Shown here: one piece after another, positions 17,842 to 33,395 of the stretch | Numbering within the stretch: position 1 is the stretch's first letter | How the letters are laid out: the number at the start of each line of letters is the position of its first letter | Source: Escherichia phage BF15 | Sequence record: MW822007.1 | Strand: one strand, 5' to 3' | Length of the DNA stretch: 64,000 nt | Translations under genes and position numbers: made by a program | The notes under the pieces: model-generated | Told to the model about the DNA's origin: nothing | The model's database searches: none | Seen by the model: the letters and a program-made list of their open reading frames with translations, nothing else

Positions 17842-18054
17842 TCATTTTTGTCCTGTATTTACTTTATGCCGATGCACGGCCTTAACTTTATCAAGGTATT
17901 TTTCAAAATTTCGCAATCTAGTATAGTCTGCCGGAGATTGGTTGAGTGATACTTCTCGACGCAAAGCTGAAATGATATTTCCAACTTCCCTACGAATTTC
18001 ATCTAATTGAAGCACAGTAAGATTGCGAAGTTGCTTTTCAGTTAATTGTAGCAT
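17842..18054 (-). CDS. rI.1: hypothetical protein
   Basis: 70 aa basic protein; synteny. Confidence 0.45.
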
Positions 18055-18096
18055 ATATACCCCTTTAGTTAGATAAACCTATTTATAACTTTTGCA

Positions 18097-18678
18097 CTAA
18101 CCGAGCTTTTTAGTTAATTCATTCCAATGTTTTCTACACAAAGAAACATAAATTTCATCACCAATACAGATTTGATTACCTTCTTTAACTGGTGTTCCAT
18201 CTTCCATTAATCGAGCTGTCATAATCGCTTTTTTACCGCAATGACAAACTGCTTTTAGTTCAATAAGTTTATCTGCAATCGCCAAAAGTTCTTTAGAACC
18301 TTCAAATAATTTTCCGGCGAAATCAGTCCTTAATCCATAAGCCATAACAGGAACATTATATGTATCAACAATTCGACTTAATTGATGCACCTGTTCAGTT
18401 TTTAAAAATTGGGCTTCATCTACAAATACGCAATGAATATCTTTTTGTGCTTCAGCCCATTTATAGAACTCGAAAATATCCATATCATCTGTAATAATAT
18501 TCGCTTCCTGCTTAATTCCAATGCGAGAAACGACTTCACAGACAGAATCGCGAGTATCAATAGCAGGCTTAAGAACTAATACACTCATTCCACGTTCTTT
18601 ATAATTATGTGCAGCAGTCAAAAGAGAAGCAGATTTTCCAGCATTCATTGCCGCATAAGTAAAAATTAAACTCGCCAT
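18097..18678 (-). CDS. tk: thymidine kinase
   Basis: 193 aa; P-loop NAGKS; C-terminal Zn motif CHCG...C. Confidence 0.9.
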   Translation of the reverse strand: MASLIFTYAAMNAGKSASLLTAAHNYKERGMSVLVLKPAIDTRDSVCEVVSRIGIKQEANIITDDMDIFEFYKWAEAQKDIHCVFVDEAQFLKTEQVHQLSRIVDTYNVPVMAYGLRTDFAGKLFEGSKELLAIADKLIELKAVCHCGKKAIMTARLMEDGTPVKEGNQICIGDEIYVSLCRKHWNELTKKLG

Positions 18679-18679
18679 T

Positions 18680-18868
18680 TTAATCCTTAGTTAAATTTTC
18701 TAAATATGTTTTTAAATCATTTTCAGCTTTATCGATAGATTTTACTAATTCGTAATATGTTTCGGCATCTCCATATTCAGAAGATATTTCAAAAGACAAA
18801 TCCTTTTCTAAACTAATAATTTCACCAACTAAAAATAATATTTCGTTCTTTTGTTCGCGAGTAATCAT
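18680..18868 (-). CDS. tk.1: small helical protein
   Basis: 62 aa, MITREQKNEIL. Confidence 0.45.
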   Translation of the reverse strand: MITREQKNEILFLVGEIISLEKDLSFEISSEYGDAETYYELVKSIDKAENDLKTYLENLTKD

Positions 18869-19056
18869 AAGGAATTTATATAATTAATAAGTTCTTGTTC
18901 TTTATTATCGAATTCTTTAGAAAGTTCTTCGTACTCGTTTGCACTAAAAGGACCGCATTCATTACAAACTTTTTCCAATTCACTATTTTTATCCATAACT
19001 TCGTGGATAAGAGAAAAGAGTTTGTCTTTTTGTTCTTTACTTAAACTCATAACCAT
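18865..19056 (-). CDS. tk.2: small helical protein
   Basis: 63 aa, MSLSKEQKDKL. Confidence 0.45.
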   Translation of the reverse strand: MVMSLSKEQKDKLFSLIHEVMDKNSELEKVCNECGPFSANEYEELSKEFDNKEQELINYINSL

Positions 19057-19274
19057 GTCACCTTTAAGCAGTATTCTTCTACATGCTGTTTACGACCTTT
19101 CTTATCAATAAAGGTATATTCAACGAATGTTCCAATGTAGTCTTTATCGACATCATGTGGACTATTAATTGGACATTTAGTACGGCAAATGCGTTCCCAT
19201 TGACGAATAATTACTGCCTTATTCTTTGGGTCATACGGATGTGGATAATGTATATTCATAATAATGGTTCCCAA
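19047..19274 (-). CDS. tk.3: hypothetical protein
   Basis: 75 aa. Confidence 0.4.
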   Translation of the reverse strand: MGTIIMNIHYPHPYDPKNKAVIIRQWERICRTKCPINSPHDVDKDYIGTFVEYTFIDKKGRKQHVEEYCLKVTWL

Positions 19275-19723
19275 TCAACAATCACAATTTCTAATTTAGA
19301 GGAATATGTATCTAAAATCCCCTCAATAATATCCCAGTTCCCTTTACCTATGCCTGCACCAATCCTAGGCATATAGATTGTAGGTTTAATTAGTTTATTT
19401 TCACCAAACTCATTTAATTCTAACATACAATTCATTAAAGCGGAATACTCAAAATTTGGCCCTGGTTGAAATTGAGTATAAAGATTAAAGCAGCAAGCTT
19501 TATGAGTCCTAAAGTATTTTTCATAGACTGAATAAGAACCAAGTTTAGTTACATCACCCCATTCAGTCTGTAATTTATCAGCTTCCAAAATTTTAGGGAA
19601 AGCTTTGGTTAATTGACCTGCGACTCCAGCTTTCATCATGTGAAAACAATTACATCCATGCGCAATATTTTTACCTTCAGCGAAAAGGGCGACAATATCG
19701 CCCTTGATATATTTTACAATCAT
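19256..19723 (-). CDS. tk.4: macro-domain-like protein (putative ADP-ribose binding/hydrolase)
   Basis: GDIV...HGCNC...AGVAGQL and PRIGAGIGKGNW loops parallel macro-domain motifs. Confidence 0.5.
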   Translation of the reverse strand: MIVKYIKGDIVALFAEGKNIAHGCNCFHMMKAGVAGQLTKAFPKILEADKLQTEWGDVTKLGSYSVYEKYFRTHKACCFNLYTQFQPGPNFEYSALMNCMLELNEFGENKLIKPTIYMPRIGAGIGKGNWDIIEGILDTYSSKLEIVIVDWEPLL

Positions 19724-20067
19724 CTAGTACTCAATCCTCTATTATAAGAATCTACCAAACGGTCAACCATTGAATGACAAGCGGCTTTATCTTTCTCCTC
19801 CGCAACTGAACATTCTAAGGTATTCCACTTTTTAGCATATCGTTTTAATAATGTATCGTTTTTGTATCTGCTTGATTTATCTCTTTCTCCGTCTTTATAT
19901 GCATATATTAATTTCTGTGCAAATTCAGCTTGGCATGCTTTATTTTTCCCACAATAATCTGCCGCAGTGCGGTTTACATATTCTCTAATTTCAGTATATG
20001 ATGTATCTGCTGACGCAGAAGCAGAAAATGAAATTAATCCTATACATAAAACCAAAATTTTAGTCAT
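19720..20067 (-). CDS. secreted Cys-containing protein (vs position)
   Basis: 115 aa; signal peptide MTKILVLCIGLISFSASASA. Confidence 0.45.
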   Translation of the reverse strand: MTKILVLCIGLISFSASASADTSYTEIREYVNRTAADYCGKNKACQAEFAQKLIYAYKDGERDKSSRYKNDTLLKRYAKKWNTLECSVAEEKDKAACHSMVDRLVDSYNRGLSTR

Positions 20068-20605
20068 TTACTATTTCCAAAAGTTTATTATTTTTAAGGT
20101 AATTAGCCTTTTCTAGGACTTCAGAAGCATATTTAGAACCAGCTTTAACATTCCATCCCGAATTATAAGAGGATATTGCTTTTCTTATATCACCCTTATG
20201 TATATTTAACCAATAAGAAAGTTCAATGTACGCCCAGGAAGCTGAATTGGATCGTTTATTCAACATTCTTTTTATTTCAGCATCGGTCATATTATAACCA
20301 AGTTCCTTAACTCTTGCTCGCATAGTAGGCAAATAATTTTGGAACATTCCGTAGGCGTGATGCTTTGGTTTAGATTTTAAATTAACTCCGCCAGAGCTTT
20401 CTTGCCATAAAATAGCAGCCATTATATGACCTAATCCGCTCTTGTGGATATTTTTGTGTGTTTTATATTTTCCATCCTTAGAAAACTGTTCCCCGAATTG
20501 ATACGCGTAACGCATGTTATCGAGTTGGACATTACTGAAAGTATGCTCGGAGCTATGTGCCATCATTGAAATGGCCAATAGACCAGCGAGTAGTGCTTTT
20601 CTCAT
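20060..20605 (-). CDS. vs.1: secreted lytic transglycosylase-like protein
   Basis: signal peptide; SLT-like motifs WQESSGG, YGMFQ, SYNSGW. Confidence 0.6.
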   Translation of the reverse strand: MRKALLAGLLAISMMAHSSEHTFSNVQLDNMRYAYQFGEQFSKDGKYKTHKNIHKSGLGHIMAAILWQESSGGVNLKSKPKHHAYGMFQNYLPTMRARVKELGYNMTDAEIKRMLNKRSNSASWAYIELSYWLNIHKGDIRKAISSYNSGWNVKAGSKYASEVLEKANYLKNNKLLEIVND

Positions 20606-20612
20606 GCTTACC

Positions 20613-21074
20613 TCATTGAGTTTTAATTACTGCTTTAGAAGCCTTTCCTGGTAAACGACGACTGTTAATAATTGCCATCCTGCATTGAAGCGACGGGTCT
20701 TTGAACTTCGCATTAGGTTTACAAACTGTAAATCCAAGCCAAAGATTTCCATCTGTGATTTCTAAACGTCCAGGACGATATTCAACCCCATCAATAAAAT
20801 CCTCGTCAATGTCAGGACGCGGAGGCATACTCAGGAATTCATTAACTTCTAAAACATGGTCTTTTATTTTATGGAATAATTCAAAAACGTATGTCTCATC
20901 AATCTCCCGTTGAATTGCGCGATCAAGAAGATGTTGAGAATATTTTAGATGAAACGATGAGACCCCTGCTGCTTTTGATGCCTCACGAATCTCATTGTTA
21001 ATTTGACGAAACTCCGACTCAAAGTGACGACGAAGCTTATTTCGACGGATAAAAACTTCTGTGTTGATAGTCAT
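20613..21074 (-). CDS. regB: probable RegB endoribonuclease
   Basis: 153 aa, the length I recall for T4 RegB, in the expected slot between vs.1 and vs.3. Confidence 0.45.
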   Translation of the reverse strand: MTINTEVFIRRNKLRRHFESEFRQINNEIREASKAAGVSSFHLKYSQHLLDRAIQREIDETYVFELFHKIKDHVLEVNEFLSMPPRPDIDEDFIDGVEYRPGRLEITDGNLWLGFTVCKPNAKFKDPSLQCRMAIINSRRLPGKASKAVIKTQ

Positions 21075-21101: not shown

Positions 21102-21131
21102 ATTATACCACAGTCAAGAGGAAAAGTAAAC
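21102..21131 (-). promoter_or_regulatory. early promoter (GTTTAC, 15 nt, TGGTATAAT)
   Basis: consensus match. Confidence 0.5.
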
Positions 21132-21412: not shown

Positions 21413-21678
21413 TAGTATTTTTCCTCTGGTTGGAACACTGCACGACAAGCCCACATACTGGCTTCTTTGAGTTTCGTTTTAGCAATAGTTAACTGATCGA
21501 GGCTTTCGGCGTAATTCTTCGCGAGTTCATCATCTTCACAGCTATCAAATGCTTCCCAAAATTCATCGTATAAAGCATCAAAGATAAGTCCTAAACGAAC
21601 TTCAGCGTCTTTAATAGCATTTACTTTACCGATTTTTTCGTCGGTATGTGGCTTATAACCTTTAATATCTTCAATCAT
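21412..21678 (-). CDS. vs.4: small protein in the vs.4 slot; candidate Acb2-like cyclic-nucleotide sponge
   Basis: 88 aa from ATG with GAGGAAG SD; assignment by synteny with T4 vs.4. Confidence 0.4.
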
Positions 21679-24491: not shown

Positions 24492-24595
24492 TTAGTAAAT
24501 TGATTTACCAAAGTATTTGTACCAAGTCGGACGTTGATCAATTTTTTCATCTAAGCGTGCTTGATTTATCGCAATGGACGCTTCGGACGGGTCAT
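24492..24595 (-). pseudogene. denV: denV remnant: start codon and last ~33 codons joined out of frame
   Basis: GGAGG-N7-ATGACCCGT (MTR) then stop after 9 codons; in the +1 frame ...[30 protein letters not shown] matches the T4 endonuclease V C-terminus as recalled. Confidence 0.6.
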
Positions 24596-24621
24596 AATTT
24601 CCTCCAAGTAGTTGATGAATG

Positions 24622-24654: not shown

Positions 24655-25895
<1,241 letters not shown>

Positions 25896-25914
<19 letters not shown>

Positions 25915-32698: not shown

Positions 32699-33395
<697 letters not shown>

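Follow-up and report, generated by a model that had tools for sequence, protein, structure and literature searches.

Which reaction does the product of tk.4 carry out in the T-even phages that encode it, and which residues set its substrate? The question arises at positions 19256 to 19723 of a 64,000-nucleotide stretch of Escherichia phage BF15 (sequence record MW822007.1; hereafter the window), where a sequence-only reading had proposed a macro-domain protein in the tk.4 position that could reverse or bind ADP-ribose marks such as those placed by bacterial defenses. Existing annotation of the gene is divided. The T4 RefSeq record lists tk.4 as "phosphatase; contains A1pp phosphatase motif", several related genomes annotate a macro domain protein, and the majority of T-even records carry "hypothetical protein" or "phosphatase".

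Both the macrodomain nature of Tk.4 and its role against the DarTG2 system are already in the literature and are not new findings of this study. T4 lacking both AdfA and AdfN was still resistant to DarTG2, which implied a further anti-DarTG2 factor (PMC11257639). A November 2025 preprint on the HIDEN-SEQ method reports that, when a T4 transposon library was challenged on a DarTG2 host, tk.4 was the sole significant gene, that a clean tk.4 knockout rendered T4 sensitive to DarTG2, and that the gene was renamed adfM, for anti-DarT factor Macrodomain; its authors regard enzymatic removal of ADP-ribose from DNA by Tk.4 as something that "seems likely" (bioRxiv 10.1101/2025.11.20.689424). On plain E. 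coli K-12 the phage can do without tk.4, which matters only in the presence of DarTG2 (bioRxiv 10.1101/2025.11.20.689424). The expectation that a phage macrodomain could undo the ADP-ribose marks of a defense system fits these knockout results. The source of the tk.4 genetics is a preprint, and the T4 allele alone was its subject (bioRxiv 10.1101/2025.11.20.689424).

Two further reports bear on the gene. A 2026 paper in Cell Reports gave the name AdfM also to gp104 of phage PhiKZ, which clears DNA of DarT2 marks in vitro (PMC13309987). In January 2026, a preprint identified a Poa1p-like phage macrodomain, Adpp, as an ADPR-1''-phosphate phosphatase by LC-MS of Vibrio phage Gary gp137, an activity through which the NARP1 pathway can remake NAD+ once RES-type NADases have acted (bioRxiv 10.64898/2026.01.28.702374). 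There are, as a result, two AdfMs with one name, and members of the protein family PHROG 335 have two different published counter-defense roles. Knowing the substrate of Tk.4, and the residues that set it, would make it possible to annotate approximately 2,700 phage homologs correctly.

The tk.4 gene and its neighborhood

The open reading frame starts with ATG on the minus strand and represents a real gene, tk.4 (adfM), encoding a single macrodomain. Its product is identical to T4 Tk.4 (NP_049723.1) at 151 of 155 residues (97.4%) and is of equal length. The surrounding genes, rI-tk-tk.1-tk.2-tk.3-tk.4-vs-vs.1-regB-vs.3-vs.4, lie in the T4 order and encode proteins 94-100% identical to those of T4, so that the earlier placement of the gene in the tk.4 position is correct. 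The interval from tk to regB is collinear with T4, with zero indels, and this 3 kb region is roughly 98-99% identical to vB_Eco_F26, T6 and T2; the window is a Tequatrovirus. The tk.3 gene maps to 19050..19259 and is 100% identical to T4 tk.3. By sequence and position the reading frame is the ortholog of T4 tk.4 (AdfM), occupying the same ATGA-coupled place between vs and tk.3 in the same neighborhood. The features of the locus are as follows.

19256..19723, minus strand: coding sequence of tk.4 / adfM, 155 aa, from the open reading frame and T4 orthology
19720..19723, minus strand: ATGA overlap of the vs stop and the tk.4 start, indicative of translational coupling, from the sequence and reading-frame coordinates; likewise in T4
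19256..19259, minus strand: ATGA overlap of the tk.4 stop and the tk.3 start, from the sequence; likewise in T4
21102..21130, minus strand: candidate early promoter upstream of regB, sigma-70-like TTTACT-17-TATAAT plus TG, 10/12 matches, the best in the scan

We infer, and only infer, that the site upstream of regB may be an early promoter for the string regB-vs.1-vs-tk.4-tk.3 and onward; the scan for promoters and terminators returned no greater number of sites in the region than in shuffled sequence.

Tk.4 is a macrodomain of the ALC1-like class

The Pfam Macro model (PF01661) matched residues 22-132 with 24.7 bits (gathering cutoff 22; E 2.4e-5), and PHROG 335, which is named "phosphatase", matched with an E value of 1.5e-63. 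Homologs were located by tblastn in 2,727 phage records. A phmmer search of the PDB with the single sequence retrieved BT1257 (3e-8), yeast Poa1p and TARG1/OARD1, together with a weak match to DarG (E about 0.1). With a family profile built from 52 homologs, the matches were BT1257 (6e-22), SCO6735 (6e-18), TARG1 (7e-17), Poa1p (2e-15) and DarG (5e-14), and the viral nsP3/nsp3 macrodomains and Af1521 reached only about 3e-3 and 0.7, respectively.

Fold prediction and comparison with macro-domain structures, one of the checks that the sequence-only reading had put forward, returned the three-layer alpha/beta/alpha macro fold. Foldseek ranked human TARG1 highest (E 1.9e-9), and yeast Poa1p (PDB 6LFQ) was among the top structural matches. 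Taken together with the Pfam, phmmer and profile results, these comparisons bear out the original assignment to the macro-domain family. The nearest class by both sequence and structure is the ALC1-like class, and not the MacroD-type, viral or macroH2A-type macrodomains. On sequence and predicted structure, Tk.4 thus belongs to the ALC1-like class, as a free-standing macrodomain of 155 aa; members of the class include TARG1, DarG, SCO6735 and Poa1p, and the predicted structure by itself does not separate them from one another.

Active-site residues

All of the motifs picked out in the sequence-only reading are present: GDIV at residues 8-11, HGCNC at 22-26, AGVAGQL at 32-38 and the Gly-rich segment PRIGAGIGKGNW at 119-130. 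Their mapping onto the macrodomain scheme was essentially right, N25 being the conserved macrodomain Asn and residues 30-36 the substrate-binding loop. The Gly-rich loop described there lies at 119-130, but it is the phosphate-binding loop and not specifically a distal-ribose loop; PRIGAGIGKG corresponds to the PB-loop of SCO6735, which lies over both the diphosphate and the distal ribose (PMC9411070). The active-site features are located in the window as follows.

19646..19660, minus strand: motif H22-G23-C24-N25-C26, from the family alignment and residue mapping by profile and MAFFT
19616..19636, minus strand: substrate-binding loop M30-K31-A32-G33-V34-A35-G36, from the alignments; carries allele differences from T4
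19472..19486, minus strand: strand end N80-L-Y-T83-Q84, from profile alignment with TARG1, BT1257 and SCO6735 and from MAFFT
19334..19369, minus strand: phosphate-binding loop P119-R-I-G122-A-G124-I-G-K-G-N-W130, from the invariant P119, G122 and G124 and the alignments

Ten positions (G23, N25, G33, A35, G62, N80, Q84, P119, G122 and G124) are invariant in the 52-sequence family alignment, and H22, C24 and C26 are conserved in at least 90% of the family. N25 is equivalent to Asn27 of SCO6735 and N23 of PhiKZ gp104, H22 to His24 of SCO6735 and H23 of Poa1p, and G122 and G124 align with Gly126 and Gly128 of SCO6735 and with the PRIGCGLD segment of TARG1. Q84 stands where TARG1 and DarG have their catalytic lysines (Lys84 and Lys80) and where SCO6735 has its essential Gln85: N-L-Y-T-Q84 of Tk.4 aligns with Y-L-I-T-K84 of TARG1, F-P-T-K80 of DarG and N-M-I-G-Q85 of SCO6735 and BT1257. 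Where TARG1 has Asp125, Tk.4 has Gly126. As aligned, the Tk.4 active site is therefore of a Gln type, without the Lys on which the chemistry of DarG and TARG1 is based.

Relation to characterized macrodomains

SCO6735 (PDB 5E3B) and BT1257 (PDB 2FG1/2AFC) are likewise Gln-type members of the ALC1-like class and are 20-26% identical to Tk.4, although they are encoded by bacterial chromosomal genes and Tk.4 by a phage gene. Tk.4 shares the Gln that marks the SCO6735 type, with Q84 and N25 aligned to Gln85 and Asn27. It differs from SCO6735 at other defining positions. Val25 of SCO6735 (Val or Ile) is replaced by Gly23, which is invariant in the Tk.4 family, and Lys34 of the SCO6735 GKG motif by A32 in the window and S32 in T4, the adjacent residue being K31 in the window allele and G31 in T4. 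A long mobile loop, some five residues beyond those of DarG and TARG1 and containing Lys89, is characteristic of the SCO6735 subclass (PMC9411070). This loop has 13 residues in SCO6735 but 8 in Tk.4 (Q84 to Y93), a TARG1-like length, and Tk.4 has no equivalent of Lys89. Strict membership in the SCO6735 subclass was rejected on account of the short mobile loop and the missing equivalents of Val25, Lys34 and Lys89.

DarG (PDB 5M31/5M3E/5M3I/7OMU) and PhiKZ gp104 have a catalytic Lys, within FPTK, where Tk.4 has Gln, and DarG possesses a second, DarT-binding domain that Tk.4 does not. PhiKZ gp104 matches DarG with an E value of 1e-24, as against 0.013 and 20% identity for gp104 and Tk.4, and gp104 and DarG grouped at 98% bootstrap with Tk.4 outside, in a tree that resolves shallow groups only (support for the Adpp-type clade was 39%). 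Membership of Tk.4 in the lineage of DarG and the PhiKZ AdfM was rejected on the absence of the catalytic Lys, the weak match and the bootstrap grouping of gp104 with DarG. The name AdfM covers, as judged from these comparisons, two non-orthologous lineages that are functional analogs within one fold class.

Adpp of Vibrio phage Gary (gp137) is the nearest biochemically characterized homolog of Tk.4 by sequence, and its overall motifs match, the Gln among them. Adpp acts on ADPR-1''-P, is encoded in the three-gene NARP1 operon and has Q23/G83, whereas Tk.4 has vs and tk.3 as neighbors and G23/T83. Human TARG1/OARD1 (PDB 4J5R/4J5S) is of the same class and size as Tk.4, with its Lys84/Asp125 dyad replaced by Gln84/Gly126; thymidine-ADPr, too, is removed by TARG1 (PMC9411070). 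The description that suits Tk.4 best is that of a separate Gln-type branch, carried by phages, within the ALC1-like class.

De-ADP-ribosylation of thymidine as the probable role of Tk.4

We rank de-ADP-ribosylation of DNA thymidines first among the possible roles of Tk.4, and consider it probable, because the only phenotype reported for tk.4 concerns a DNA-modifying defense. In this mechanism, the DarT2 toxin of the host would ADP-ribosylate thymidines in single-stranded phage DNA upon infection and thereby block replication. Tk.4 would hold the ADP-ribose between its substrate-binding loop (30-36) and its phosphate-binding loop (119-130) and hydrolyze the bond between thymidine and ribose, restoring a replicable phage template. 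Q84, held by N25, would position the distal ribose in the manner of SCO6735, with no use of the Lys on which DarG and TARG1 depend. We infer that catalysis is by Tk.4 itself and that the window allele acts like that of T4.

Biochemistry of SCO6735 is consistent with this mechanism. SCO6735, with Gln85 at the position of the Lys, strips DNA of the dT-ADPr made by DarT and rescues cells from the toxin (PMC9411070). Gln84 is thus no argument against DNA de-ADP-ribosylation by Tk.4, since a protein with the same Gln performs the reaction efficiently. The Q85A variant of SCO6735 is inactive and N27S almost inactive, and discussion of a Gly128-to-Glu change credits the flexibility of the PB-loop (PMC9411070). 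Tk.4 retains the equivalents of these SCO6735 residues, namely H22, N25, Q84, G122 and G124. In PhiKZ gp104, substitution of the Asn equivalent to N25 (N23A) decreases DNA de-ADP-ribosylation (PMC13309987).

Counted against the thymidine reaction are the absence from Tk.4 of several features that are linked to DNA activity in SCO6735, the identity of its nearest characterized relative by sequence as a small-molecule phosphatase, Adpp, and the three residues of the substrate-binding loop at which the window allele departs from the one tested in T4.

Relation to the Adpp phosphatases

Tk.4 might instead act mainly as a small-molecule phosphatase, in the way of Adpp and Poa1p, with ADPR-1''-P as its substrate and ADPR as its product. 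The ADPR-1''-P would come from RES-type NADases or from RNA-repair chemistry, and the DarTG2 phenotype would be a secondary effect or a product of promiscuity. Such a role is in keeping with the A1pp motif in the T4 record and with the name of PHROG 335. Gary Adpp and the window protein share 34% identity (E 4e-22) as well as the motifs H-x-C-N-C, N-x-Y-x-Q and IG-G-AGGDW. In the Pakpunavirus Zigelbrucke, a Tk.4 homolog directly follows Adps-like and Namat-like genes and is listed as NARP1-linked in Table S1 (bioRxiv 10.64898/2026.01.28.702374), and the NARP1-linked macrodomains of Acinetobacter phages carry HGCNC/NAYTQ of the Tk.4 type.

The genomic setting of tk.4 argues otherwise. When Adps-like and Namat-like proteins of the Pakpunavirus were queried by tblastn against the window and the whole T4 genome, no homologs were returned (best E 0.7 and 0.064), while a macrodomain control in the same search found tk.4 at 1e-16 and 6e-15. 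With no Adps or Namat, a T-even phage could not turn the ADPR product back into NAD+, and the preprint ties Adpp functionally to its three-gene operon (bioRxiv 10.64898/2026.01.28.702374). The sole tk.4 phenotype reported is on DarTG2, a system that modifies DNA.

The residues at positions 23 and 83, which lie next to the catalytic Asn and Gln, point in the same direction. Q23/G83 occurs in about 87% (66/76) of the NARP1-linked macrodomains examined, the others being six of the Tk.4 type, all from Acinetobacter phages, and four of a third type. G23 with T/S83 occurs in 97/97 classifiable homologs retrieved with Tk.4, although near-identical sequences are numerous in both counts and the set seeded with Tk.4 is biased toward Tk.4. 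The combination G23 plus T/S83 was also found in three homologs, from a Felixounavirus, a Vequintavirus and a Schitoviridae Vibrio phage, whose flanking 4 kb contain no NARP1 genes. The signature H-Q-x-N-C plus N-x-Y-G-Q is absent from Tk.4, which has H-G-C-N-C and N-L-Y-T-Q; this signature is our own empirical criterion, derived from the 76 NARP1-linked macrodomains, and is not absolute, given the six exceptions in Acinetobacter phages. We treat the split between G23/T83 and Q23/G83 as a lead, not a proof. A principal function as an ADPR-1''-P phosphatase is, on balance, unlikely; the phosphatase and DNA de-ADP-ribosylation roles are not mutually exclusive and may coexist.

A joint reading of these data can be offered tentatively. 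The Tk.4-type phage macrodomains may be a Gln-type subclass of their own, marked by Gly23/Thr83, a short mobile loop and the absence of DNA-clamping lysines, and a sister form of the Adpp phosphatases. The switch between G23/T83 and Q23/G83 might then retarget one scaffold between ADP-ribosylated thymidine, against DarTG2, and free ADPR-1''-P, against RES, or else Tk.4 might be bifunctional, one small protein acting against the two kinds of defense. Were this so, the dense loop substitutions among T-even phages would represent continuing adaptation of substrate or toxin recognition.

Protection without catalysis and erasure of phage marks

Tk.4 might also protect with no catalysis at all, either by direct binding and inhibition of DarT2 or as a reader of ADP-ribosylated DNA. 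Catalytically dead SCO6735 Q85A, DarG K80A and TARG1 K84A inhibit DarT in vitro, SCO6735 most strongly (PMC9411070), and the other T-even protein known to counter DarT, AdfA, is reported to inhibit the toxin directly (PMC13309987). Variation among T-even Tk.4 alleles is, moreover, concentrated in the ligand loops. The residues required for hydrolysis by SCO6735 (the Asn, the Gln and two loop glycines) are, however, invariant in the family across many phage groups and hosts. Catalytic-type residues that are invariant across such diverse phages are more in line with an enzyme than with a protein that binds a single, fast-evolving toxin. Tk.4 is also a 155-aa single domain with no counterpart of the C-terminal DarT-binding domain of DarG. 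We regard protection in this form as quite improbable.

Last is the idea that Tk.4 erases the phage's own Alt, ModA and ModB marks on host proteins or RNA and so tunes host takeover, a link to T-even ADP-ribosylation already raised in the sequence-only reading; T4 does encode alt, modA and modB. These enzymes ADP-ribosylate arginine, and macrodomains are not known to cleave the arginine linkage, which was counted against the idea. Despite the hydrolysis of Glu/Asp-linked protein ADP-ribosylation by SCO6735 and TARG1 (PMC9411070), we judge it the least probable of the alternatives and very doubtful, for the Tk.4 family itself occurs in many phage groups beyond the T-evens, Pakpunavirus, Felixounavirus, Vequintavirus and Schitoviridae among them, and tk.4 is dispensable on E. 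coli K-12 and needed only with DarTG2 (bioRxiv 10.1101/2025.11.20.689424).

Allele differences in the substrate-binding loop

The window protein differs from T4 Tk.4 by four substitutions, T29M, G31K, S32A and Y77C, the first three of which are substitutions of the substrate-binding loop. In the neighboring tk.3, vs and vs.1, the encoded proteins show no difference from T4. At the nucleotide level, the tk to regB interval has 55 differences between the window and T4 in 2,978 collinear bases, and 12 of the 55 fall inside 22 nt (19619..19640) that correspond to tk.4 codons 28-35, that is, to the substrate-binding loop. In its sequence, this patch looks like a small mosaic segment that swaps loop alleles. 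The K31/A32 form of the loop is common among T-even orthologs (cluster P0001, n=122 sequences).

Sequence features of the Tk.4 macrodomain

Comparison of tk.4 with its T4 orthologue revealed a short patch of divergence that coincides exactly with the substrate-binding loop, comprising 12 nucleotide differences within 22 nt. The substitutions T29M, G31K and S32A result, and the remaining changes are silent. The protein products of tk.3, vs and vs.1, which lie to either side of tk.4, are identical to their T4 counterparts. From this alignment, the patch looks like a micro-mosaic or gene-conversion tract that exchanges loop alleles. A second distinction, between macrodomain groups, involves residues 23 and 83: Tk.4-type proteins carry G23/T83, whereas most NARP1-linked Adpp-type macrodomains carry Q23/G83 (Adpp is an ADPR-1''-P phosphatase, and NARP1 is the phage NAD+-rebuilding pathway). 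This paired signature divides the two groups, with the exception of NARP1-linked macrodomains of Acinetobacter phages, which have the Tk.4-type signature. The pair is a possible substrate-specificity switch between Tk.4-type and Adpp-type macrodomains, as judged from these sequences.

Positions in tk.4 (minus strand) discussed here
19619-19640, codons 28-35, substrate-binding loop patch
19655-19657, codon of residue 23
19475-19477, codon of residue 83

Longer proteins of this type also occur. Gp120 of Salmonella phage Meda, a Felixounavirus (L002:3995-4780 in our locus set), is a Tk.4-type macrodomain protein with HGCNC and NLYTQ motifs, and its 261 aa include a C-terminal extension of approximately 105 aa. 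Several metagenomic homologues are 243-246 aa long, and the family profile matched by Tk.4, PHROG 335, spans 422 positions.

The name AdfM (anti-DarT factor Macrodomain) has been given independently to two proteins: T4 Tk.4, a Gln-type macrodomain by its active-site residue at position 84, in the HIDEN-SEQ preprint (bioRxiv 2025.11.20.689424), and PhiKZ gp104, whose macrodomain is DarG-like and of the Lys type (PMC13309987). Identity between these proteins is about 20%; they are not orthologous, and the shared name is a collision.

Genomic context

T4 is collinear with the window from tk to regB. Phages T2, T6, SH7 and others match window positions 18000-21000 (3,001 bp) in two pieces spanning about 3,374 bp, and therefore carry approximately 370 bp of extra sequence that is absent from the window.

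Orthologues of T4 57B, nudE and vs.4 lie, as a set, at 21415-21678, 32702-33157 and 25462-25914. The vs.4 orthologue, which we take to be Acb2, shows a 94% match, and that of nudE, annotated as a Nudix hydrolase acting on ADP-ribose, a 96% match. The 57B orthologue shows a 98.7% match, and T4 57B is the anti-CBASS protein Acb1 according to the HIDEN-SEQ preprint (bioRxiv 10.1101/2025.11.20.689424).

By tblastn, the match to T4 denV was confined to its C-terminal 42 residues (24495-24620, 74% identity). The denV product is endonuclease V, a pyrimidine-dimer glycosylase. Because its N-terminal two-thirds had no tblastn match within the window, denV of Escherichia phage BF15 seems to be truncated, replaced or highly diverged.

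Within its 5' end, the tk.4 reading frame contains a perfect 8-bp palindromic stem (19685-19705, AAGGGCGA-N5-TCGCCCTT), which begins 18 nt past the start codon and which a terminator scan scored as terminator-like on the antisense strand. The stem would, from its sequence, fold in the tk.4 mRNA as well, and may be incidental.
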